From contig NC_043005.1 of NCBI RefSeq assembly GCF_006345805.1, forward strand, positions 69,874,001 to 69,938,000: 64,000 nt of DNA, in the 5' to 3' direction. Positions within the stretch are counted from its first letter, which is position 1. Each line of letters opens with the position of its first letter. A program made the position numbers and the translations under genes. The stretch comes from Octopus sinensis. Lineage: Eukaryota. The notes beneath the pieces are model-generated. The model was not told the origin of the DNA. It saw only the letters and a program-made list of their open reading frames with translations, and ran no database searches. Below, in pieces: positions 2,481-59,200 of the stretch.

Positions 2481-2843
2481 TCCTGTTTTATGTCTTATAC
2501 TACTTTTTTAGGCATTTATTATTAGGTCTCCAGATCTACTTCTGATTATACTTTAAAAAATACTATTCTAACGATAACTGTATAAATGGCTTGAGTGAAT
2601 GTACTTATGCTGGGAGTTATAATATTTGAACCAAGATTCAGAAATCACCGATCTGGAAAATTATTTCAGTGAATGTCATAACACGAAGTCAAGTGGTGCT
2701 TTGTAGATGTTTGTGTCCTGCATTTGATACTGAACTCTCCTTTAATGAAATATTCTAGAAATAAATGAATGATAACATTTCAAAGGATCGGCTTTCTCCT
2801 TAAGTCGCTCATATAAATTATATATATATAAGGGTGAAAAAAA

Positions 2844-3166
2844 TTAACACCAAGTGGTTTAGCGCATAAAAACTGGGACACAGTAAAAATTAATACACAC
2901 ATATAAGAGAGGGTCCACTATATGGACGCTCTTGCGCTTAAAATAGATCCGCAATGGTCTCAACCACCAAGGATTGTTCCCAAGGAGAATTAGCACAATT
3001 ATGAACATAGTTGTGGTAATTCTCCTTGGGAACAATTCTTTGTGGCTGAGACCATTGCGGATCTATTTTTAGCGCAAGAGTGTCAACATAGTGGACCCTC
3101 TCTTATATTTGTGTATTAAGATTTACTGTATCCCAGTTTTTAATGCGCTAAACCACTTGGTGTTAA
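2844..3166. repeat. Foldback with ~160-bp inverted arms between TA tracts
   Basis: TTAACACCAAGTGGTTTAGCGCAT... at 2844 mirrors ...ATGCGCTAAACCACTTGGTGTTAA ending 3166; short loop near 3005. Confidence 0.9.
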
Positions 3167-3271
3167 ATTGATGTTATTAAATTAATATCCAATCGTTTCA
3201 CCTTTATATATGTATATATATATATACATATATACATATACATACACACACATATATATATATATACATAT

Positions 3272-4305: not shown

Positions 4306-5560
4306 TTGGGTTGGCAAGAAAGTAATTTGTTTTTTTTTTTGTGTGAAAATAAGTCACCTTTTCTTCATACAATGAATGAAATTTAATCAGTTATAAATTT
4401 TCCAGTTTCTCCGATTATCTTTTTCCATCTTTCTGCCGACTTCATGAATCCGCGCTCATAGATCATCTGGTCCTTATCAGCCAAACACTGAAGCAAGTGC
4501 GATTTCAGGTCATCGTCATTATTGAAAGTTTTATCATTCAAAGAATTTGGTAAACGTCGAGATAAATGGCAAGCTGCTGGTGTAAGTTCAGGGCTATATG
4601 TTGTATGTGACATCCATTCCAAACAAGGCTCAAATAATTTTTCATGAGTTAGCAAACGTTTCTGGTCTAGCTTTGTTATGGTGTAACACGATTCCTTTGC
4701 GAGTTGTCATTTTTTACCGTTTGTCTTTGATTGCTTCCTCCAGTTTCAAGAGTCGTTGACAGTAAGTATCTAAATTGATCATGTGCTTACTTGAAAGTAG
4801 CTCAAAATACACAACGCATTTGTAATCCCACGAAATTGACAGCATGAACTTTTTTATGCAGTTCAGCTTTCCATGTGTTTTTGCAGGTTCATTACGCTTG
4901 GACCATGATCATTTTCGATTGATGCTATTGTAGACTATCCATATTTTATCACCATTGATGATCCGTTTAAAAACAAGATCGATTTCATTGCATTTGAGAT
5001 GCATTTCACAAATATTTATTTATGTTAGGTGACACTTATTCAATTTATGTGGAACCAAAATATCGAGCTTCTTAAGGAGTCACGGATATTTTAAGTGATT
5101 TTCAGTTGTATGTGATACATTTAACGTCTCTGTAATATCTCGCACATTTATATGACAATCAGATTCAATTATGGCTTTGATTCGGTCCTCATCAACTTCA
5201 CTAGGTTGAGCAGAACGTTGGACATCTTTGAGTGAACAATATCCAGAACGGAATTTATAAAACAGTTTCTGACATATGTATTCTGTTAAGCAATCGACAC
5301 CATAAACTTCACATATCTCTTTCTGAGCCTCAGCGGCTTTCTTGCATTTATGGAAATAGTAAAATCAAAATATGGCGAAAACTTTTGCTCTCTGTGTTAA
5401 AATTGACACTGATCTAGCAGGTGTAAACGAAACTACGCGCAATGTTCTGAAAGTAATGGCTATCAAATTTCAAATGGAATACATTATAGCACTAACAAAA
5501 GTCATCCAAAATAATCTTAACTCTGTTTCCGAAAAATGAAAATGCTTTCTTGCCAACCAA
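4306..5560 (-). mobile_element. Mariner DNA transposon, full-length relic with disrupted transposase
   Basis: TIRs TTGGGTTGGCAAGAAAG / CTTTCTTGCCAACCAA with TA on both sides. Minus-strand WVPHK near 5050; YSPELTP (YSPDLAP-like) in ORF 4383-4655. Confidence 0.92.
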
Positions 5561-10768: not shown

Positions 10769-11321
10769 TTTTTCAGATTTATGTATGCTAGACTACTGGT
10801 TTTAAATTAATATTATTAATTTATCTCCCTCATTAGTTAAATATTGAAATAAATACGTTCTCTAGTAGCCAGCATTAACCGCAGTAAATTATTTACTGCA
10901 GTTCTTCGCTACAGAAATTTTTAAAGCGCCAGAACTAAAACATTTGAAATTTATCCCTATTGTAATCGGTAAAACTAAACACGTGTCTGTTTTGGCACAG
11001 AAAGCTGGGGTTAGTTTTTTTCAGTTTACATTTGTTCTGAACGATTGTACTGACGAGACTACGGACATTTGAATTATGTAAGTAATTCTTTCGTTAATAG
11101 TCGAAACCGAGGTATGCGATTAATTCTGTTTTTTATATAAATTTTCATCTGTCTTACCCGCCTAATTTGTTTCTGGTGTTTCGCTGAATTGTAGATTGAT
11201 CGTTGATGGTCTACATCTAGCATGCGGCCGACTACATAGCGGTCTTGCCTTGTCAATATATACACACACATATATATATATATTTAGGTATGTATCTACT
11301 TCTATCCTTCTCTCTCTCTCT

Positions 11322-11373
<52 letters not shown>

Positions 11374-12788: not shown

Positions 12789-12862
<74 letters not shown>

Positions 12863-13401
12863 ATTTCAACAATTGAGGGTAAAATTAATTAATTATTAAT
12901 CAATTTCACCAAGTATTCAGTATGTAAAGGGACCATTTAAGGCGAATTCAAAATATTACATTTTATAAAGGGCTTAGTAAAATAAATTACTTTGCCACAT
13001 ACCGAACTCATTAGAAATAGCAGCCAAAAAAAATTTTTTTAGCCAAATTCTAATACTTAAAGAAAATTTCTCTCAGATAGTGCTTACTCAAAATAGCCCA
13101 CGAAGGTATGGGGGTAAAAACATTAAAAAAATCACAAGTGCAAAGGTTATTTGAGAACGTACGTTTCTAGATCAGCCAAATACAATTCGACATTTCTCTC
13201 TGTTTAATGCTTCGGTTTTCACCGATAAAATTATGGTGTTTGCTAGGTTAGCCCACGTGAGTGGAAAGGGGAGGCCAGAAATTCTTCGCTTGCATATTTT
13301 GAATTTGTTGGCACTGTTAGTCTGAACGGATCTTCGGAGGTGAAAAGTCGCCAAAAGGATATGCTCCTACTTTCAGTGTTTACAAATCCGAATTAAGAAA
13401 T

Positions 13402-13463
13402 TTTGGGCTGACTCAAGAAATGTCGAATTGTATTTGGCTGATCTAGAAACGTACGTTCTCAAA
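13402..13463 (+). ncRNA. Hammerhead motif with mutated core (CTGACTC)
   Basis: Same fold as 13969-14030 but CTGACGA changed to CTGACTC; likely inactive. Confidence 0.6.
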
Positions 13464-13968
13464 TAACCTTTGCACTTGTGATTTTTTTAATGTTTTTACC
13501 CCCATACCTTCGTGGGCTATTTTGAGTAAGCACTATCTGAGAGAAATTTTCTTTAAGTATTAGAATTTCGCTAAAAAAATTTTTTGGGGCTGCTATTTCT
13601 AATGAGTTCAGTATGTGGCAAAGTAATTTATTTTACTAAGCCCTTTATAAAATGTAATATTTTGAATTCGCCTTAAATGGTCCCTTTACATACTGAATAC
13701 TTGGTGAAATTGATTAATAATTAATTAATTTTACCCTCAATTGTTAAAATTATAATTCATTTCTCTCTGTTTAATGCTTCGGTTTTCACCGATAAAATTA
13801 TGGTGTTTGCTAGGTTAGCCCACGTGGGTGGAAGGGGGAAGGCAGAAATTCTTCGCTTGCATATTTTGAATTTCTTGGCACTGTTAGTCTGAACGGATCT
13901 TCGGAGGTGAAAAGTCGCCAAAAGGGTATGCTCCTACTTTCAGTGTTTACAAATCCGAATTAAGGAAT

Positions 13969-14030
13969 TTTGGGCTGACGAAAGAAATGTCGAATTGTAT
14001 TTGGCTGATCTAGAAACGTACGTTCTCAAA
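13969..14030 (+). ncRNA. Type I hammerhead ribozyme motif, intact core
   Basis: Stem I TTTGGG/CTCAAA, CTGACGA, stem II AGA..GTCGAAT-TGT-ATTTGGC..TCT, GAAAC-GTAC-GTT; predicted cleavage after 14024. Confidence 0.82.
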
Positions 14031-14186
14031 TAACCTTTGCACTTGTGATTTTTTTTATGTTTTTACCCCCATACCTTCGTGGGCTATTTTGAGTAAGCAC
14101 TATCTGAGAGAAATTTTCTTTAAGTATTAGAATTTGGCTAAAAAATGTTTTTTTGGCTGCTATTATATATATATATATATATATAT

Positions 14187-18863: not shown

Positions 18864-19007
18864 ATATGAGAGAGTATATGCATATGTCTGTGTATGGACA
18901 TTTGAATATATACTATGTATACAGATATTTATTTTTTAGGAAGTTATGTACTTTTTTTATTAATGTATGACTGCGCTTTTAAGTTTGCTGGCCAGCCTGC
19001 AATAATA

Positions 19008-20281
19008 TTGGGTTGTCCGGAAGGTTCGTGCTGATTTTTAAAGGGAAGAAAAAGGTCAATAAATACTTGCCATTACATTTGTAATCAACCAAATATGAAC
19101 CATTTTGTTGCACAATGCGTCTCCATCTTTCCTTTAACTTGAAAATACTATCTTCCCAGAATTGAGGTAGTTTCATGGCAAAGAATTCATCAAGGTAGCT
19201 TTTTATGTCATCCAATAAATTGAATTTTTTACCATTTAAAACTATCCTGCAAGGACTTGAATAAGTGGAAATCCGAAGGACAAATATCTTGTGAATATGG
19301 AGGGTGGGGTAACACATTCCATCCGAGCTGCAGCAATGTTTGCCTGGTTCCCAAAGAAACGTGCGGTCTTTCATTATCATGTTGGAAAACAATACCCTTC
19401 CTCTGTTTGACAATCTGGACGTTTCTTTTGAATTGCTGCTTTTAACTCGTCCAGTGGTGAGCAGTATTTATCAGAATTAATTTTCTGGTCACTTGGAAGA
19501 AGCTCATAGTACAGATATTCTTTCCAATCCCACCAGACACAAAGCAAGACTTCTTTAGGGTGAAGACCTGTTTTGGGGGTGGCTAAGGGTGGCTCATGTC
19601 GCTTACTCCAGGATCGCTTTCTCTGAACATTTTGGTAGATAATCTATTTCTCATCTCCTGTCAAAATTTGCTTTAAAACGGGCGCGTTTTCATTCCGCTT
19701 TTTCATTCCGCGAATCACAGATGGAAGTGCGATCCAAAAGGTTCTCCTTACTCAACTCATGTGGTACTCAAACATCGTAGCCATTTGTGTACCCAAGCTT
19801 TATCAGGTGCTCATGAACGACGGATTTTGATAGGTTGAGGATTTTTGCCAATTCTCGGGTAAGGCAAAGTAAGTAATTCTCAATGACTTGATTTGGTTAT
19901 CATCTGTAGTGGATGGTCTGCCTGATTGCTGTTTATCAATATGGCTAAGATCGCCATCTAAGAACCTTGCGAACCACTTCTTTATATTTGTTTCGGATAA
20001 ATAAACATCACCGTAAACTGCGCATATCTTTTTGGGGTTGCTTGTGTTGCATTTTTACCTTTACAGAAAAAGAAAAGCATCAAGTGTCGAAAATGAACTT
20101 TTTTATCTTCCATTTTAAAGGGTTATAAAATTATAGGAACATAAAACTTCTTCCATGAAAAGATAGCATAAACTGTGCTCTAAATGGAGGTGTAGTCAAA
20201 TTGTATTTTATGGACCCAACCATGTTCTAAAATCAGTCGAAAAGTAAGCTACAATCGGCATGTACTTTCCGGACAACACAA
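19008..20281 (-). mobile_element. Mariner DNA transposon, full-length relic
   Basis: TIRs TTGGGTTGTCCGGAAGGTTCGTGCTGATT / AATCGGCATGTACTTTCCGGACAACACAA with TA on both sides. Transposase starts MEDKKVHFRH at 20113 and ends LKERWRRIVQQNGSYLVD; frameshifted. Confidence 0.93.
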
Positions 20282-20738: not shown

Positions 20739-20975
20739 CATATTCTGTTGTGTCTGAGGGGATTCATTTTCTTTTTGTGCCTTATAATTTAACACATTCA
20801 CCGGTAAAATTTTCACTTCGTCCTTATTTTTATTTTCCTAAAATTGTCCTTGCTCCTTGCAACATTTTTAATGATTATTGAAACTGTTGCAAGGAATAAG
20901 TGGAAATTTTACCGGTGAGTGTGTTAAATTATAAGGCATAAAAAAAATGAATCTTCCTAGACACAACAGAATATG
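20739..20975. repeat. Foldback adjoining a TA tract
   Basis: ATATTCTGTTGTGTCT..CACCGGTAAA mirrors TTTACCGGTG..AGACACAACAGAATAT; the left arm carries a ~35-bp extra segment. Confidence 0.8.
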
Positions 20976-21209: not shown

Positions 21210-21244
<35 letters not shown>

Positions 21245-21247
<3 letters not shown>

Positions 21248-21685
21248 TGGTACACCGGCGATTATAATTATTTTATTGTATCGCATTTATCTTTGTTTAC
21301 ATATTCTCTCGATAAATTTCTGACCGTTAGACGATATACCACAATCCCCTATTTTGTCGGGTTTTCGGAGTCTGCGCAGTGTTTTGAATAGTTTAGAAAG
21401 AGCATTTCGATAGACGCACATGGATCTATTGGTATGGTCTTTCCATCATTAACAGGAATCTTACTGAAGAGCCAGCCTGAGTAAATAAATACTATTTTTA
21501 TTACTGAATTTGCGAAACTGCAGTATAAGAAAAGTTAAGTTTGTAAAAGTTTTTAATTCTCATCTCACTAAATTATCCAGCTATTGTGATTAGTACACTC
21601 TTCGCCTTGATGGTAATGATATATGTATAATATGGCGTGTACTGGTACACGCGATTATAATTAATTTTATTGTATCATTTATCTT

Positions 21686-21690
<5 letters not shown>
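21245..21690 (+). mobile_element. HHR-bearing monomer (family 1-related), 395-bp unit with ~50-bp terminal direct repeat, in (TA)n
   Basis: TACTGGTACAC..GCGATTATAATT at 21245 and 21640. Shares GTCTGCGCAG, GCCAGCCT and CTCTCGATAAATT with family 1. Confidence 0.8.
21459..21530 (+). ncRNA. Type I hammerhead ribozyme motif, intact core
   Basis: Stem I TCTTA/TAAGA, CTGAAGA at 21464-21470, stem II closed by GC/GC, GAAAC-TGCA-GTA; predicted cleavage after 21525. Confidence 0.85.
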
Positions 21691-21731
<41 letters not shown>

Positions 21732-23527: not shown

Positions 23528-24226
23528 ATTCTAAAAAGTTAAGCGTAATAAATAAGTTCATAATTATTTCTTACTAATGTCAACAGAGACCACGTGGTGT
23601 TTTTCTTTGGTGGGGGGGACATAATGGCTGTCTTGTGCGTTGACTAGTATCGTTGGGTGTAATAGTGAAAGTGTAATATATATATAAATGTTTGCAGTTT
23701 CCTAAACACCTGTATTGTGATGGATAAACTGTGCGGTGCAAATAGCTCAATTAAACCTACACTTACATGATATACATATTTGAAATGTATACCATGTAAG
23801 TGTAGGTTTAATTGAGCTATTTGTCCAGCACGTTTATCTTAATAACGGAAGATGGCAGCGGACAAGGAAGATCCTTATCGGAAGCGGTGCCAGAAAAATA
23901 AGGTTTGAAAACCTGTACAGGTACACAGGTGAACGTGAGCAGCCAATTAAATGTTCTTCCAAAAAATATCGTTTAACATTAAAATGTCTTTCAGAATTTA
24001 ACTTTTACTTTCATAGAAATTTGGTACATTTATGTTTGAAAAAGTTTCGTTTTCGATTGTGTGTGCTAGGCAGTGTATCATCATCCCCATCCTCATCCTC
24101 ATCATCATCATCGTTTAACATCCGCCCTCCATGGTGAGGGATATCGGTAATTATGTATATGTACTCACACACCCTACATTGATTGTCTGTTTCTCTCTCT
24201 CTCTCTCCCTCTGTATATATATATAT

Positions 24227-27000
<2,774 letters not shown>

Positions 27001-27657
27001 ACGACGGGTTTCTTTCAGGTTCCGTCTGCCGAATCCGCTCACAAATCTGTGGTCGGCTCAAGGCTATAGTAGAAGACACTTGCCGTAGACTGAACCCGGA
27101 GCCATGTGGTTCATAAGCAAGCTACTTACCACACATCCACTCCTACGATTTCTTTTTACTTTTTGAGTTAAATAACGGTTTATTGTATGCTAAATAGCTT
27201 CGCTATATTGAACAAATAACACAAGGATTCATATTATCCTTACTTATATTAGCGAAGATGTAATTGCATAGAAAGTGGTTTGATCTGAGATCGTGTGCTG
27301 TAAATAGAGCGATTGCAGTGCGGGAGATATAAGTTAGACATTCAGAAACACACAAAACTGTCAACTTCACTTAAGCAATTGTAATATGGTGTCAAAACTT
27401 CCGTCTTTCGTGTCAGCGACCTATTAACTTATAAAATTGTTTGTCACGCCTGGGTATTTTCGAAAATACTGCAATTATTATCGTTTGTGATGGCTTTGAG
27501 CTCATTTTAGTTGCGATGGAATATGTCAGGCGTTATGTTTGGGGGTAGGGTCCATAGCCTGTTTTTACTACGGGATCTCAGCAATCACACTAATTGTGCC
27601 TTTGGCATTGAATTGTTAATTTTATTGGATGGATAGTGCCCAACGTAACAAAAGCAG

Positions 27658-35169: not shown

Positions 35170-36415
35170 ATCTTTCCTAGGTGATCCATTTGCTGTGAAC
35201 AACTGCTAAATTGAGGGCTGGGCATGCCGTGTTTGATGATGCATAGACATCCCCTCATACTGCGACATCTACGGCGCTCCATAGACGACAGTGAACATGT
35301 GTTGTTGCTGTTTGCGCGGCGCACTTTTCTACAGCTCGTCGTGTTTGGGAGAACTGCAGTCGTGGATCAAACAAAGGCCGAGGTTAGGCGAATGGCACCA
35401 CAAGTCTCAAGTGACTCTGCCGTCCGGGACCAACCTTATGCGATTTCAATTTAACAAACGTGTTCTATAGAGGATTAGTGGAGGGGAGGTGCGACGACTT
35501 TCAAGAAGTAGAATCTGGGTGTCAACGAGGAACACCCAACCAGCCTGTTCAGGACAACTTTTGGGCCGGTACCTATGGACAATCACCAGAAATACCTGAC
35601 CTGGCAGCTATCAAGAATCAATGCCCATTTCGGGATAAGCTATACAAGCAGGCTTCGAGACACACCAGACCGACTTGCCTGAGACGCGTTCAAGGTGACG
35701 AAACCGTTCTGCACGCACTCGTGCAGTGTCCAACCATTTCGGATATGTGGGCTTATGCCGAACGGATGCTGTTACGTGTGGGACGAGTTCGCTTGTCGGC
35801 CGAGTCTATGGTGAAAATTACTCCGTCACAATCTCTTAACCGGGACGGCAAGGCAGTCTTCATTGTACCGGTGGCCATGGTTAAATAATGTGAGTGGTGG
35901 AATCGAACGAAGGTTTTAAAGACAAACACTTACCTCTCTGGCCAATCGCTAATCAACTTGTTTAAGTACCACTTGAAAAGGAATGTAATAATAGAGAGAA
36001 GTCTTGTCTCGTGAAACATTCAATAAAGGCTGGGTGAATGTAGCAAACATGATACGTACGAATGAGAAAACCACTTTGAGCATGATCTTGTAAATGGTAA
36101 AGGACGAGATTAAGAGAGTTAGGTAGTAATTTGCCCTCATGTGTTTCCTCCTCCCTGCCTGACGTTACCGTGCTCTTTTTCGCAGGCTTTTCTTTCTAAG
36201 GATAAACCTAATTTGTCTCTTTTTTTACATTAATGATTTTTCTGTGATACACGATCCCTTTTCCTTCCTTTGTTTTTGTTTTACACGATCCTTTTTGATC
36301 GGAAATTTATTTCCGCTTCCTTTTCTTTGACTATTTTCAAAAAGCTCTACATTTTATTTTTGTTCCCTCTGTGTTCGACTCTGTGTAGCTAATAAAACTA
36401 CTTATTTATCTATCT
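35170..36415 (+). mobile_element. 5'-truncated Tx1/L1-like LINE: zinc-binding C-terminus and 3' UTR
   Basis: ORF 35460-35888 has PTCLRRVQGDETVLHALVQCP, a decayed CxxC..H..C zf-RVT motif; AATAAA then TATC at the 3' end. Confidence 0.8.
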
Positions 36416-41401: not shown

Positions 41402-41608
41402 TATATATATAATTTTACATTGTATAAAAGGGCTTAGTAAAATAAATTACTTTGCCACATACTGAACTCATTAGAAATAGCAGCCAAAAAAACATTTTTT
41501 AGCCATTTCTAATACTTAAAGAAAATTTCTCTCAGATAGTGCTTACTCAAAATAACCCACGAAGGTATGGGGGTAAAAAACATTAAAAATTCACAAGTGC
41601 AAAGATTA

Positions 41609-41670
41609 TTTGAGAACGTACGTTTCTAGATCAGCCAAATACAATTCGATATTTCTTTCGTCAGCCCAAA
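41609..41670 (-). ncRNA. Type I hammerhead motif, intact core, in the inverted arm
   Basis: Reverse complement of TTTGGG-CTGACGA..GAAAC-GTAC-GTT-CTCAAA. Confidence 0.8.
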
Positions 41671-42116
41671 ATTTCATAATTCGGATTTGGAAACACTGAA
41701 AGTAGGAGCATACCTTTTTGGCGACTTTTCACCTCAGAAGAACCGTTCAAACTAACAGTGCCAACAAATTCAAAATATGCAAGCGAAGCCCTTTTATACT
41801 ATGTAATATTTTGAATTCGCCTTAAATGGTCCCTTTACATACTGAATACTTGGTGAAATTGATTAATAGCTAATTAATCTTAACCTCAATTGTTGAAATT
41901 ATAATTCATTTCTCTCTGTTTAATGCCTCGGTTTCCACCGATAAAATATGGTGTTTACTAGTCTGACCCACGTGGGTGGAAGGGGGAGAGCAGGAATTCT
42001 TCGCTTGCATAATTTGAATTTGTTGGCACTGTTAGTTTAAACGGTTCTTCTGAGGTGAAAAGTCGCCAAAAAGGTATGCTCCTACTTTCAGTGTTTCCAA
42101 ATCCGATTTACGAAAT

Positions 42117-42178
42117 TTTGGGCTGACAAGAGAAGTGTCGAATTGTATTTTGCTGATCTTGAAACGTAAGTTCTCAAA
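42117..42178 (+). ncRNA. Hammerhead motif, degenerate
   Basis: Core CTGACAA and loop GTAA instead of CTGACGA and GTAC. Confidence 0.55.
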
Positions 42179-42682
42179 TAATCTTTGCACTTTTGAATTT
42201 TTAATGTTTTTACCCCCATAACTTCGTGGGTTATTTTGGGTAAGCACTATCTGAGAGAAATTTTCTTTAAGTATTAGAAATGGCTAAAAAATCTTTTTTT
42301 GGCTGCTATTTCTAATGAGTTCAGTATGTGGCAAAGTAATTTATTTTACTAAGCCCTTTTATACAATGTAGTATTCTGAATTCGCCTTAAATGGTCCCTT
42401 TACATACTGAATACTTGGTGAAATTGATTAATAGCTAATTTATTTTTACCCTCAATTGTTGAAACTATAATTCATTTCTCTCTGTTTAATGCCTCGGTTT
42501 TCACCGATAAAATATGGTGTTTACTAATCTGACCCACGTGGGTGGAAGGGGGAGAGCAGGAATTCTTCGCTTGCATATTTTGAATTTGTTGGCACTGTTA
42601 GTTTGAACGGTTCTTCTGAGGTGAAAAGTCGCCAAAAAGGTATGCTCCTACTTTCAGTGTTTCCAAATCCGAATTAAGAAAT

Positions 42683-42743
42683 TTTGGGCTGACGAAAGAA
42701 ATGTCGAATTGTATTTGGGTATCTAGAAACGTACGTTCTCAAA
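42683..42743 (+). ncRNA. Type I hammerhead motif, intact core
   Basis: CTGACGA 42689-42695, GAAAC-GTAC-GTT 42726-42737, stem I TTTGGG/CTCAAA. Confidence 0.8.
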
Positions 42744-43246
42744 TAATCTTTGCACTTGGGAATTTTTAATGTTTTTACCCCCATACCTTCGTGGGTTAGT
42801 TTGAGTAAGCACTATCTGAGAGAAATTTTCTTTAAGTATTAGAAATGGCTAAAAAATGTTTTTTTGGCTGCTATTTCTAATGAGTTCAGTATGTGGCAAA
42901 GTAATTTATTTTACTAAGCCCTTTTATACAATGTAATATTTTGAATTCGCCTTAAATGGTCCCTTTACATACTGAATACTTGGTGAAATTGATTAATAGC
43001 TAATTAATTTTACCCTCAATTGTTGAAATTATAATTCATTTCTCTCTGTTTAATGCCTCGGTTTTCACCGATAAAATATGGTGTTTACTAGTCTGACCCA
43101 CGTGGGTGGAAGGGGGAGAGCAGGAATTCTTCGCTTGCATATTTTGAATTTGTTGGCACTGTTAGTTTGAACATTTCTTCTGAGGTGAAAAGTCGCCAAA
43201 AAGGTATGCTCCTACTTTCAGTGTTTCCAAATCCGAATTAAGAAAT

Positions 43247-43308
43247 TTTGGGCTGACGAAAGAAATGTCGAATCGTATTTGGCTGATCTAGAAACGTACG
43301 TTCTCAAA
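43247..43308 (+). ncRNA. Type I hammerhead motif, intact core
   Basis: CTGACGA 43253-43259, GAAAC-GTAC-GTT 43291-43302, stem I TTTGGG/CTCAAA. Confidence 0.82.
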
Positions 43309-43971
43309 TAATCTTTGCACTTGTGAATTTTTAATGTTTTTACCCCCATACCTTCGTGGGTTATTTTGAGTAAGCACTATCTGAGAGAAATTTTCTTTAA
43401 GTATTAGAAATGGCTAAAAACCTTTTTTTGGCTGCTATTTCTAATGAGTTCAGTATGTGGCAAAGTAATTTATTTTACTAAGCCCTTTTAAACAATGTAA
43501 TATTTTGAATTCGCCTTACATGGTCCCTTTACATACTGAATACTTGGTGAAATTGATTAATAGCTAATTAATTTTACCCTCAATTGTTGAAATTATAATT
43601 CATTTCTCTCTGTTTAATGCCTCGGTTTTCACCGATAAAATATGGTGTTTACTAGTCTGACCCACGTGGGTGGAAGGGGGAGGGCAGGAATTCTTCACTT
43701 GCATATATATATATATATATATATGCAATTTATAATAGAATTTTTAAGTAATATTTCACAAGTCATCTCTTTACATTTTCTTTAAATTCTAAAGATTCAT
43801 AATGAATTAAATTGGGGATTCCATAATATGTATATATTTCCCCATCCTAAAATTGATATATGCTTATTACCCTTAAGCTTTCTGTAAGAACAAAAATTGT
43901 ATTTAGCAAGCCGTAACATCTTTGCACTTCTTCGAAAACTTTCCCTTAACGAATCTTAAATTAACGAGTGA

Positions 43972-50677: not shown

Positions 50678-52757
50678 TAATATATGTATATGTGTGTGTC
50701 TATATATATATATATATACATGTAAAGATATGCGTGTATGCGTATGCATATATACATATAAATATATTCATGCATATGTTGTGTGTGCGTGCGTGGGTTT
50801 TTGTATGTGTGTGGTGTATCTCAAAGACAATCAAAAGCTATGTTAGGAACAATAATAATGCCATCTTTTATAACTCTAACGCAAACAGAACATAGAGTCT
50901 GTAAGTTGTAGAGTTACGTGTATTCTTCGAAAGAAAACCTCACGTACATGAGAGTTCGAAACCTATGCCAGTGTGAATGATATACATTCATAAATCTTGC
51001 ATGATAAATATAACAATCTCTATTCGAATATATTCTAGTACGTCAATATTTCAATTTTATAAACCAGAATAATCACAGGTAGGTAGTTTTGTACTTGTTA
51101 CTGATTTAAAGTATAATCATAAAAGCTTAAATTTTCAGGACTTAAAAAACTGATAGAAGTTCTGCAACTAAAAATGTCTTCTTGAGGGAAGAAAATCTAG
51201 CACTTCTCAAAATGAAAGATCATATCAAAATGAAAAATCCTAACAAATGAAAACTTCTGACAAAAGGAAAAATCCTACCAAAACGAATACAAAAATGTGA
51301 GATATGTATGCAAAAGTTGAGCTCTCGTTGAAAGCAAAAACAGCTTTATCTAACAAAAATGTTATTGCTTATGCACAAATATTTCAAAAGACTGTTTAAT
51401 CCCTAGTGTAGTTGGAGATATAAAGACAAAAAGTTATAAGAAATAATCGCAAACTTTCCACGTTCCACATGTCAACGCATTAGGCAACAACCTTTATAAA
51501 ATAAGAATGACATTAAGAAGATAATCTTAACAAAACAATGTGATTGATTAACATGAAGATGTTGATAACATTACAATGTTAGGAAGATAACCATGCGCAA
51601 ACAATATGTTTTATATGAAAATGTGTCGAGCACAAAAAATATTAGGAAAATATGCTTTTAAATCGTCTAAAGTGAAAGTGTATTTCGAAAAAGATTCTCT
51701 TAGAATAAAATGCTTCAATGAAATATTTTGCTAAAAACATGCTACAAATAAAGTATTACGGAAAGCCTTGATAAAATTATGTACATATATTTTCGTAAGG
51801 GTCCCCAGGTTTAATATATCGGGATAGAAGAAATGGAAAATACTTGAAGTTAATCTATCACCTAATTGTATAACGGAAGGTAAATCTTTTCAAATGCGTT
51901 TTCTATACGCTCGTCTTGGCTCCATTTTGATTGTATCTGCAATTTCATACTCTTTCATTTTATTCTTGAAGTCTAATTCAAGATCACACCTTATTTGACG
52001 CGTATAATAAAATAAGATATATAATAACGGCGACGACAATGATGACGACGGCGGTGATAACGATGAGGAGGAGGCGGATGATGATGATGATCATGATCAT
52101 GAACGTGGTATGATAGCATAAATATATAAAATTAAAAAACTTTAAGTACATAAGTTAAAAGGATAAAACATGTAAAACGCGAAAACATGAAAGCGTTGCA
52201 GAGATGGATGACTTCCAAGAACTATTCAAATGCATTTATTACTGCTTTGATTGTTTTCTGTTAAATTTGAACTACATGACACTAATCTGAGGCAAGGAAG
52301 AAGTTGTTTTACATAGAAAATCAAAGAAAAAAAAATTAAATATAGTGCAATTTACCTTATTGATGTTCCCTTCTTGGTCACATATCTGTTAATTTTGTCT
52401 GTTTCAACATCAACCATATCTTTGTGATCATTACTCGTTGGGTTACTGTTTTTTCAAAGCCTGGTTTCGTTTTGCAATATTTTAATTATTCTAACGTTAA
52501 TTTATAACAATGACGGCAAACACACTACCCGAATCAGATAATAAAACAATATTAATATAAATAGCAATAATATTTCCCAAAATTATGGGAGTAACAGATG
52601 CATAAGCATAATAACCAGCATTTGCTGTTAGAGAAAAAAAGGGGAATTAACAGGAACTATGTATCACATACAAATATACAGATGATATTATCACTGATGT
52701 AAGCATAACAGTTTTTTCCTTTTATACATACATATATATATACATATATATATATAT

Positions 52758-53604
52758 ATCATATAATTAAGGGCTAAAGAGGGTTATTCTAAAGCCAATA
52801 CACTGATCTATCCACTTATAATCCGCTTGCTACACGAGAATTGAAACTGAAAACGGGCAACTAACCTTTAGAAAATTTAAATTTCGTTATCTCTATATTG
52901 AATCAATTTCGGAATTAATCTTATAAAAAGATATATTCTTTCTTCAGTAGAGCTTTCGATGGGATATAATAAAATACTCACGTATGATCATGGAAAAAGC
53001 ACAAGCTAAAAACATAACTACACTTGAGTACATCACTTATACCTAAAAATAAAAATTCTTTGGTCAGCCTCAGAAACAACGTCTTGACCTTTCGCCGCTA
53101 CAAATTGTAATGGTTACCGGTCCTCCCGTAGCAAGCAGCGAGTTTACTACTAACAATATAGGATGAAGTCCCTTTCTCCACAGAAAAGGAATCCATCCAG
53201 AATTTTTATTTTTAGGTATAAGTGATGTACTCAAGTGTAGTTATGTTTTTAGCTTCTGCTTTTTCCATGATCATATGTGAGTATTTTATTTATATCCCAT
53301 CGAAAGCTCTACTGAAGAAAGAATATATCTTTTTATAAGATTAATTCCGAAATTGATTCAATATAGGGATAACGAAATTTAAATTTTCTAAAGGTTAGTT
53401 GCCCGTTTTCAGTTTCAATTCTCCTGTAGCAAGCGGATTATAAGTGGATAAATCAGTGTATTGGCTTTAGAATAACCCTCTTTAGCCCTTAATTATATGA
53501 TGTTTATACTTCAACCGTAACGGTTTTTTTAAATATACTGCCCACGCTTCCTGATGGATTCCTTTTCTGTAGAGAAAGGGACTTCATCCTATATTGTTAG
53601 TAGT
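52758..53604. mobile_element. Foldback of a ~490-bp circularly permuted unit in (TA)n
   Basis: 52758-53059 mirrors 53199-53500, and 53146-53197 mirrors 53553-53604. Confidence 0.85.
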
Positions 53605-53633
53605 AGTAGTATATATATATATATAATATATAT

Positions 53634-53685
<52 letters not shown>

Positions 53686-53688
53686 TAC

Positions 53689-54267
53689 GCGAGAAAGAAG
53701 CAACAAGAATGGATAGGTTTTTAGTACAATCGTTTCATACAAGGACAGGCTTTATTAAAAGTTGCAAAAATTACAGCATATAAACGTGTCCCGTACTCAT
53801 CAGCTAAAATACATGTGAGTTCTCTAGACATCCTAGTGGTTGAGGCTATACTCATGAAGTAATGTAGATAATTAAGTAACATAAACAGATTTTCAAAGTT
53901 CATTAAAGTTCTTTAAAGATGATGTGCAGTCTTATCACAGAATTTTAAAAAAGTTTTAATAGCATCCCAGAGAAGGTGACCTAATCCATAGTGCTATTAA
54001 AACTTTTTTAAAATTCTGTGATAAGACTGTACATCATCTTTAAAGAACTTTAATGAACTTTGGAAATCTGTTTATGTTACTTAATTATCTACATTACTTC
54101 ATGAGTATAGCCTCAACCACTAGGATGTCTAGAGAACTCACATGTATTTTAGCTGATGAATACGGGACACGTTTATATGCTGTAATTTTTGCAACTTTTA
54201 ATAAAGCCTGTCCTTGTATGAAACGATTGTACTAAAAACCTATCCATTCTTGTTGCTTCTTTCTCGC
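53689..54267. repeat. Near-perfect foldback with ~276-bp arms, TA-flanked
   Basis: 53689-53964 mirrors 53992-54267 with a 27-bp loop; this explains the twin 60-aa ORFs. Confidence 0.95.
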
Positions 54268-54385
54268 TTATAATCACCCCACATTACTGTATTGTTAAAA
54301 CAGTATAGTTTTTTTTGGGTGCATCTAAGTTAGGTACCATATTCAAGTAAATTCATTTAAATTAACTTGAATCTTTATTGCTTTT

Positions 54386-54435
<50 letters not shown>

Positions 54436-58099: not shown

Positions 58100-59200
58100 A
58101 GGTGTGCTAATACAGATATATAGTGGCATGGATTAGCGATGGTTGGTGAGTTTCGGCGTGTATAATAGGAAGGCGGCGAAATATAGGACATGTGGAAGGT
58201 AATACTTTGACGTGAATGTAGGTTCGAGAAAATGTGGGACTGATAGAAGTGTATATTGTGATATGTCCTGGGTATGACACGAAAATGCACTAACACCCAA
58301 GTTATACCTATCAATATCCGATCTATGGATTAAATAGATATTTTAAGGGCAGTGGCGAAAGCAATCAATCAAGCAAGCAAACACAAAAATTAATACCCTC
58401 TCTCTTTATATACCCAAACCGAGCGCAGAACTGTATAGCTGATGAACATAATATGATGTTAGTCCAGTAACATAGATTCATAGTTTGGAGGCTACTATCA
58501 CGTCAGTGCTCAAACGATTGTTATATGGTGGCTGAGATAGCAGGGTGTGATTTTGAGGCTCTTAATGTGGAGAAAGTAATGTACAAGATTGGGGAAATTG
58601 GTATAATGCAATACGTGGAAGAAAGAAACTTAGTGTAATGGATGGATAATAGTGATACACTTAGAGGCACAAGAGGAATATGATAGACGCAAAAGTACCA
58701 GATTGACACAGAAGGGGAAAACTAAAGGAAAAGAAGACGAAAAGGATAAGAAAAAAGAGTACAAGCGTGTTCAGACAGAAAAACGATAAATTGGGGGAAA
58801 ATTTAGAATAATTATTACAATAAATCACTGTAAAAAAAATTGATTACATTATTGGATAAAAAATACAGTATTGGTGAAAAGTCGTACACAAGTGATCAAT
58901 AGTGCAGGGAAAAGAGAAATGCCAATAGTACAGTGAAGATCTGAGATAGAGAATCTCATAAGGTAACCGATACGTACGCAAGTGCTTGACTGATTTTATG
59001 GCGTTTATAACAGAGGACATCCCTGATAGCAAATGGTGAATGTGATAAGAAAAATATTAGAAAATATCAATGTCAAGGAATTTAATCTCAACGAAATTTT
59101 TGTATGAGTTGTTCCAGTTACACGTTCAAGCAAACATTGTGTAGGAATTGAAAGCTCTTGGTCAAGAGAGTGAGAGAAACAGAGATAGGCTGAAGTGCGG
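58100..59200 (-). pseudogene. Possible decayed Penelope-like RT remnant
   Basis: Weak, ordered resemblance to PLE words (FSNIF..INAIK, PILYI, IFRRLPII); many disruptions. Confidence 0.3.

Follow-up and report, generated by a model that had tools for sequence, protein, structure and literature searches.

Short non-coding repeats of low GC content that carry a type I hammerhead ribozyme have been described in animals as non-LTR retrozymes, with units of 350–390 bp in Mytilus and of 330/350 bp in axolotl (Cervera and de la Pena 2020, PMC7229834). As that work presents them, their hammerheads have a short helix III with a palindromic loop, and related subfamilies coexist in one genome. Canonical metazoan type I hammerheads are described with a helix III of 1–2 bp, a palindromic loop and a G10.1–C11.1 pair (PMC4209133), and activation by dimerization has been reported for them (PMC4209133; PMC6155905); the short palindromic helix III and families rich in compensatory changes were both described in the first of these studies. 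Vertebrate retrozymes, which occur as monomer and multimer copies, have been proposed to be non-autonomous derivatives of Penelope-like elements (PLEs) and to be mobilized by them (Li, Clavereau, Pollet, 10.64898/2026.07.22.740005).

The repeat studied here lies at positions 21247–21690 of a window of 64,000 nucleotides of Octopus sinensis DNA (contig NC_043005.1; all coordinates are those of this window). Like the systems above, it is a short non-coding repeat of low GC content with a type I hammerhead; also shared are the short helix III and its palindromic loop, the G10.1–C11.1 pair, compensatory changes between relatives, predicted activation in dimers, monomer and multimer copies, a proposed mobilization by PLEs and the presence of a related subfamily in the same genome. 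No paper on cephalopod retrozymes was found by title in a literature search whose scope stopped short of subscription journals and supplements, and molluscs are not among the taxa named in parts of the main text of the vertebrate study. We consider it likely that 21247–21690 is a solo copy of a non-LTR retrozyme subfamily, predicted to cleave as a dimer, mobilized by a Penelope-like element and inserted in a TA microsatellite.

Structure of the locus

The window is AT-rich and contains many TA microsatellites, one of which holds the insertion:

21213–21246, no strand: left (TA)17 tract, the target microsatellite; the TA at the junction is common to the tract and the unit
21247–21641, + strand: repeat unit, non-coding, 34% GC; 395 nt in the assembly and about 404 nt in contigs of public runs
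21257–21285, + strand: hairpin just ahead of the 3' end of the insertion, from folding
21642–21690, + strand: partial second unit (terminal redundancy), whose 3' end is a TA overlap with the target
21689–21730, no strand: right (TA)21 tract

The preliminary description had reported a 395-bp unit with about 50 bp of terminal redundancy, and this is what is found: the unit at 21247–21641 is followed by a repeat of its first 53 nt, which differs from 21247–21299 by five missing letters, one extra letter and no substitution. The copy is thus 1.13 units long and solo, with a single ribozyme. Under the two-ribozyme rule used to call copies 'active' in the vertebrate study (10.64898/2026.07.22.740005) it is a monomer, and the sister repeat, family 1, counts as active. 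Its size and composition (395–404 nt, 34% GC) fall within the range of retrozymes (150–450 bp, GC below 50%, non-coding), and the sole frame of at least 100 codons that touches the unit crosses the TA repeat. At the 3' end of the insertion no poly(A) tail was found, and inspection of 21247–21690 by eye found no LTR-like layout; a target duplication inside (TA)n is unreadable against the repeat background. The 21257–21285 hairpin and one that precedes the left-arm end in family 1, which differ in sequence, have predicted folds of -8.1 and -15.7 kcal/mol. Set against the retrozymes of PMC7229834, as these are presented there, the unit differs in being a solo 1.13-unit copy and in its longer helix II, to which an internal loop and another hairpin are added.

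Architecture of the hammerhead

The ribozyme is made up of the following segments:

21449–21463, + strand: 5' strand of helix I, with Ib at 21449–53, an internal loop with AGG, and Ia TCTTA at 21459–63
21464–21470, + strand: hammerhead core CUGAAGA, from the pattern scan
21471–21513, + strand: helix II, with the G10.1–C11.1 base, an internal loop with CCU, and the distal helix 21480–84/21501–05
21514–21525, + strand: GAAA core, 2-bp helix III, palindromic loop UGCA and GUA triplet
21526–21538, + strand: 3' strand of helix I, with Ia TAAGA at 21526–30 and Ib GTTAA at 21534–38

All the elements of a type I hammerhead are present, namely the CUGANGA-type core (CUGAAGA), GAAA, the NUH triplet, here GUA, and helices I–III, and cleavage is predicted between 21525 and 21526. 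The GUA triplet is known in natural hammerheads (PMC1636495). Helix III consists of an A–U and a C–G pair around UGCA, and together with its loop (TGCA, 21519–22) it forms the 8-nt palindrome ACUGCAGU; further pairing is found in helix Ib (UUAAC/GUUAA) and in distal helix II (AGUAA/UUACU). Stem I had been described as different from that of family 1 and yet paired, and loop 3 as different and yet palindromic. Both statements hold, with verified coordinates for the stem: TCTTA/TAAGA here corresponds to GACTCG (262–67)/CGAGTT (332–37) in family 1, and TGCA corresponds to CGCG. With a helix I of 5 bp, a loop and 5 bp, the ribozyme is non-minimal, unlike the minimal hammerheads of PLEs described in PMC4209133, and family 1 departs from the hammerheads described there by an A·A at the base of helix II.

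Rfam hammerhead models gave no match at gathering score in the whole window, nor were they among the 17 Rfam matches at E up to 10, which were dismissed as TA-repeat artefacts. A pattern scan for relatives gave no match in viral contigs. The single metagenome match (L001) lies in a GC-rich, bacterial-looking stretch with no homology beyond the pattern, and the two matches in prokaryote genomes (L002, L003) lack a hammerhead; all three were attributed to chance.

Relationship to family 1

Two further segments are needed for the comparison with family 1, which is the third line:

21370–21398, + strand: conserved block with the palindrome CTGCGCAG at 21372–79, 92 nt before the core (96 nt in family 1)
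21543–21588, + strand: conserved U-rich block after the ribozyme, matching family 1 351–398 (score 46, reached by 0 of 1000 shuffles)
14–892, + strand: family 1, the comparison partner, with an inverted arm (14–156), a unit (151–595) and a partial unit (596–887)

Family 1 has two ribozymes in tandem, with cores at 268 and 713. The local alignment of the two units is significant, with a score of 102 against a null of 30.4 ± 4.7 (maximum 50 in 500 dinucleotide shuffles) and a maximum of 52 against 310 other segments of the window. The aligned part, 21362–21633, is collinear and comprises 184 matches, 71 mismatches and 56 gap columns (72% identity), which agrees with the claim that the units share blocks in the same circular order. 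The claim does not extend to the first third of the unit, which is indistinguishable from chance: 21247–21370 scores 14 against family 1 (null 8.0 ± 4.6, maximum 26 in 300 shuffles), so that no homology is detectable there, and an out-of-order block, 21306–21357 against family 1 371–397, was rejected as chance because 204 of 1000 shuffles score as high. A shared core is not sufficient to produce the likeness, since six other hammerhead-like stretches of the window show none (z at most 1.8, compared with 18.8 for family 1). Only two of the 28 pairs formed by eight hammerhead-like stretches are outliers: the unit with family 1, and a pair of loci that belong to a single family (z 152). The next pair is at 4.2.

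Variants in public sequencing runs

Contigs from four public runs (four organism codes) were compared with the unit, and 40 of the 49 substitutions and 12 of the 20 indels are listed. A 434-nt contig of run X1 covers the unit and overlaps itself by 30 nt, which gives a unit of about 404 nt. Relative to the contigs, about nine letters are missing from the assembled copy, including one in helix II; among the differences listed, substitutions are almost absent, and the contigs are longer by one or two letters at each of several sites. An extra G behind 21511 is present in all four runs and, by hand reading, lengthens helix II from 2 to 5 bp (GCCAG/UUGGC). The deletion-only pattern suggests that the missing letters are quite probably long-read errors, but letters may really have been lost at the locus, as contigs collapse copies, and the two copies of family 1 show no comparable indels between them.

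In run X8, 213 contigs map on the unit in four identity bands (91, 58, 51 and 13 contigs), which exceeds what one locus could give and therefore indicates multiple genomic copies; contig depths were not taken as copy number. A loose end in the same run is a weak hint that a copy elsewhere has an identical 3' end. Also in X8, changes in the 5' strand of helix II are present without matching changes in the 3' strand among those listed. The variant contig X5 record 7 (depth 6.4) has 36 other letters than the unit; among the 40 listed of 49 substitutions, none lies in 21450–21473, and its proximal helix II carries A–U to U–A and G·U to A–U changes; the listed differences bear on its 5' half.

A third subfamily appears in three of the four runs (X1, X5, X10) as self-closing contigs of 426 nt, with a unit of about 396 nt. 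It matches 21254–21393 with 16–19 other letters and is below 80% identity elsewhere; it is closest to the unit in the third that lacks detectable homology to family 1, and is possibly a mosaic. Self-closing contigs of the unit itself (434 nt in X1; a joint from 21633 to 21247 in X10) were dropped as evidence for circles or arrays, because one locus with a 53-nt redundancy is enough for a 31-mer graph to close on itself. Eleven runs guessed to be RNA contain 0.33–0.40 of the unit's words, a figure that was not taken as evidence of expression.

Paired changes in the ribozyme

In a gap-free register, stem I pair 1 is G–C in family 1 and A–U in the unit, and pair 2 is C–G and U–A; the outer loop-3 pair, which can form only between two RNAs, is C–G and U–A. 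All three are double transitions. When the count is restricted to stem I pairs 1–4 and helix III with loop 3, all eight pairs are intact in both sequences, with three two-sided changes and no broken pair, while six slid registers give no two-sided change. Farther out in stem I, pair 5 (A–U to U–A) adjoins a 4-nt indel and pair 6 is broken. One pair of distal helix II follows a wobble path, being C–G in family 1, U·G in X5 record 7 and U–A in the unit. The base of helix II carries an extra A on each side in family 1, both of them absent in the unit, and the four copies of an unrelated second family of the window all have A·A at this position.

The probability of at least four two-sided Watson–Crick changes among seven pairs is 0.0004–0.002 in simulated independent drift, given five 5' changes and with pair 5 included, and hand arithmetic on the three unambiguous double transitions gives about 0.002. 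A formal shuffle of the pairs is non-significant, 55 of 500 being as high, in a comparison of only two sequences that has no power. MAFFT puts helix II of the two sequences out of register, and RNAalifold accordingly missed the hammerhead. What the preliminary description called covariation is three to five paired changes and no statistically supported signal; its statement that structure was kept while sequence changed is supported by the three clean pairs, by one in distal helix II, by the two As that differ together at the base of helix II and by the A–U to U–A change of the variant contig.

These changes could have arisen by chance in a decayed repeat whose motif was chosen for its hammerhead look, with no recent selection on catalysis. 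The two full sequences and the outcome of the shuffle would fit this, as would the identity of the ribozyme region (about 71%), no better conserved than the flanking blocks (80–83%), and a hammerhead fold that is not the minimum-energy fold. It is nevertheless very unlikely, because the core fixes the register, every change among the eight pairs is two-sided while the slid registers have none, the probability is about 0.002, and the third variant contributes compatible changes. What the paired changes speak for, judged from sequence comparison, is that the ribozyme fold was under selection in the lineage; they are no proof that the 21247–21690 copy is active. The earlier argument for a selected catalytic function is therefore supported as far as selection on the fold is concerned, and stops short of the activity of this copy.

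Proposed Penelope mobilization and other routes

The layout is of PLE type: the insertion studied here lies in (TA)n as a partial tandem, and inverted arms are present in family 1 and in other families of the window; family 1 combines a partial tandem with an inverted arm, and both its ends are in TA. PLEs are reported to form 5'-truncated partial tandems and inverted 5' copies, and to use (TA)n as targets (10.1101/2021.04.23.441226), and a PLE origin of retrozymes is argued in 10.64898/2026.07.22.740005. In a purely descriptive comparison, with no null, each of nine arm ends set against an internal copy abuts (TA)n and has a few T/A letters in common with it. On the other side, no autonomous partner was identified in the window.

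The same layout raises the question of whether the unit is instead the detached pLTR of an autonomous PLE, left by a 5'-truncated insertion, in which case the ribozyme would have been selected in the parent and the unit would have no small-RNA replication of its own. PLE insertions do form 5'-truncated partial tandems (10.1101/2021.04.23.441226), Xenopus retrozymes are reported to resemble pLTRs (10.64898/2026.07.22.740005), and the extra nucleotide after A9 in family 1 is a trait of PLE hammerheads (PMC4209133). We nevertheless find this unlikely: what lies upstream of one unit is the unit's own tail, with head-to-tail closure in both subfamilies and no ORF end; helix III is full, unlike that of the minimal PLE hammerhead; and a search by eye of frames of at least 100 codons identified no such ORF beside either locus.

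Spread at the DNA level, by unequal crossover of a satellite or by DNA circles, or mobilization by LINEs, would make the ribozyme a passenger. Target-primed insertion by a PLE would account for short arms that are dispersed in (TA)n and have inverted 5' copies, and the 3' end has no poly(A) tail, so that we regard such routes as highly improbable, even though the units are tandem, DNA-level amplification is discussed for retrozyme arrays (10.64898/2026.07.22.740005) and LINEs are named as possible helpers (PMC7229834).

Folding, dimers and a possible life cycle

Taken singly, the 13-nt segments of helix III remain unfolded in prediction, whereas as dimers they form 8-bp duplexes of -13.1 and -16.1 kcal/mol. 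In the assembled monomer the hammerhead fold (-1.2 kcal/mol) lies 12 kcal/mol above the minimum (-13.4). The fold of the whole unit is no better than that of shuffles (z +0.75; circular -74.5 versus -74.7 ± 5.0, for an assembled copy about nine letters short), whereas that of family 1 is (-108.9 versus -89.3 ± 6.2, 40 mononucleotide shuffles). The circles described in PMC7229834 are 'highly self-paired'; for the unit as assembled, strong self-pairing is not predicted.

For a copy mobilized by a PLE as a retrozyme, these properties suggest the following cycle. Because helix III is unstable alone and an 8-bp helix can form from two copies, cutting would take place in tandem transcripts or between two RNAs, and the monomer is predicted to stay mostly uncut. 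Cut monomers would be ligated to circles by a host ligase, as in the literature on the class. A PLE endonuclease would then nick TA DNA, reverse transcription would start about 165 nt downstream of the cut site, cross the intact cut site and stop 53 nt into the second unit. The insertion does span an intact cut site and ends about 165 nt past the predicted cut; since this site was crossed intact, the template would have been a ligated circle or an uncut longer RNA, and a single cut linear monomer was presumably not the template, unless the enzyme jumped. A ligated circle has, in our estimation, somewhat less than an even chance of having been the template. The earlier proposal of slightly more than one turn around a circle is compatible with 1.13 units but not diagnostic, as reading an uncut tandem transcript, or jumping between templates, would leave an identical sequence; moreover, arm lengths across the window range from about 0.3 to 3.4 units, of which 1.13 is one draw.

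Observations on other systems bear on these steps. With an anole PLE in vitro, uncut RNA is reported to be the main substrate, and priming to begin at a site non-homologous to the target (PMC11167929), which differs from the short TA overlap at the ends here, itself a descriptive observation with no null. Among Xenopus retrozyme dimers, eight of nine are reported without cleavage in vitro (10.64898/2026.07.22.740005).

Possible loop contact and upstream block

The internal loops of helices I and II contain AGG and CCU, respectively, at a spacing that is equal in both subfamilies. The candidate contacts are CAGG/CCUG here and AGGC/GCCU in family 1, of which three core pairs are invariant; a small Watson–Crick pseudoknot between helices I and II could result. 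Potential pairing of loops I and II at conserved spacing is a feature of the pseudoknotted hammerheads of Perreault et al. (2011, PMC3088659); by comparison with these, as described there, the pairing here is only 3–4 bp and is invariant between subfamilies, hence without covariation support.

The block GTCTGCGCAG, 92–96 nt upstream of the core, is invariant between the subfamilies, and among the 40 listed of 49 substitutions the contigs have no other letters in 21364–21381. It could pair with loop 3, or it could be a promoter site. In a built-in switch, CUGCGCAG would pair with the helix III/loop 3 strand and lock the monomer circle, while in tandem RNA the palindromes would pair between copies and the AGG/CCU pseudoknot would prime cutting. 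Five pairs between CUGCGCAG and this strand are kept in both subfamilies through wobble changes. The duplex is weak, however (-8.7 and -9.3 kcal/mol), and absent from the minimum-energy fold of the unit; comparable palindromes occur in 68 of 159 segments of the window, so that the upstream palindrome alone is not rare; and the block may act as a DNA promoter site. We consider such a switch improbable. If true, it would answer how metazoan retrozyme circles escape self-cutting, a question left open in PMC7229834.

Other repeats in the window

The window contains several repeat families with hammerheads, as the pattern scan and self-BLAST show. The second family (12859–14164 and 41411–43706; cores at 13975, 41664, 42689 and 43253) has the palindromic loop GUAC, a GUU triplet and the A·A at the helix II base mentioned above; it forms partial tandems with inverted arms ending in TA, and carries the 12-nt palindrome ACCCACGTGGGT about 157 nt before the core. 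A two-armed insertion at 53685–54390 has hammerheads at 53803(-) and 54153(+), a loop 3, GAUU, whose dimer pairing requires wobbles, and a 10.1–11.1 pair that is G·U in one arm and A–U in the other. A solo hammerhead at 11050 (10770–11325, between microsatellites) has a canonical helix II and the non-palindromic loop CGAG. The inverted-arm repeat 52751–53610, with CUGAAGA at 52947(-) and 53312(+) and helices that close poorly, and the degenerate core at 58439 are probably decayed ribozymes.

In three unrelated families, arms ending near 875, 52760, 12870 and 41425 have a similar CCCT(T/C)AATT-like word only a few bases short of their 3' end; it is possibly a docking signal common to them, or a coincidence. 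At 24255–27001 a stretch of 1380 bp is directly duplicated (24255–25634/25624–27001, 99.8% identity), either recently or as an assembly artefact. Foldback (self-inverted) stretches of 120–330 bp lie at 2841–3169, 20739–20975 and 23723–23838, the second of which, just left of the unit, looks like an old miniature inverted-repeat element. By eye, the frame fragments 4383–4706(-) and 18979–19467(-) recall what we take to be mariner transposase ends, and 35415–35888(+) presumably the C-terminal zinc region of a non-LTR retrotransposon.

Implications

Earlier publications cover the class as well as its palindromic loop and compensatory changes, and the surprise is accordingly low; most likely the repeat represents a new subfamily of metazoan non-LTR retrozymes. 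It would add one more case for Penelope mobilization of retrozymes. The unit and family 1, a naturally diverged pair (72% identity), amount to a ready-made compensatory-mutation experiment for dimer-dependent hammerheads, in which each of the two loop-3 palindromes is expected to pair with its own kind rather than with the other, and which permits A·A and G–C at the base of helix II to be compared and the AGG/CCU contact to be tested.
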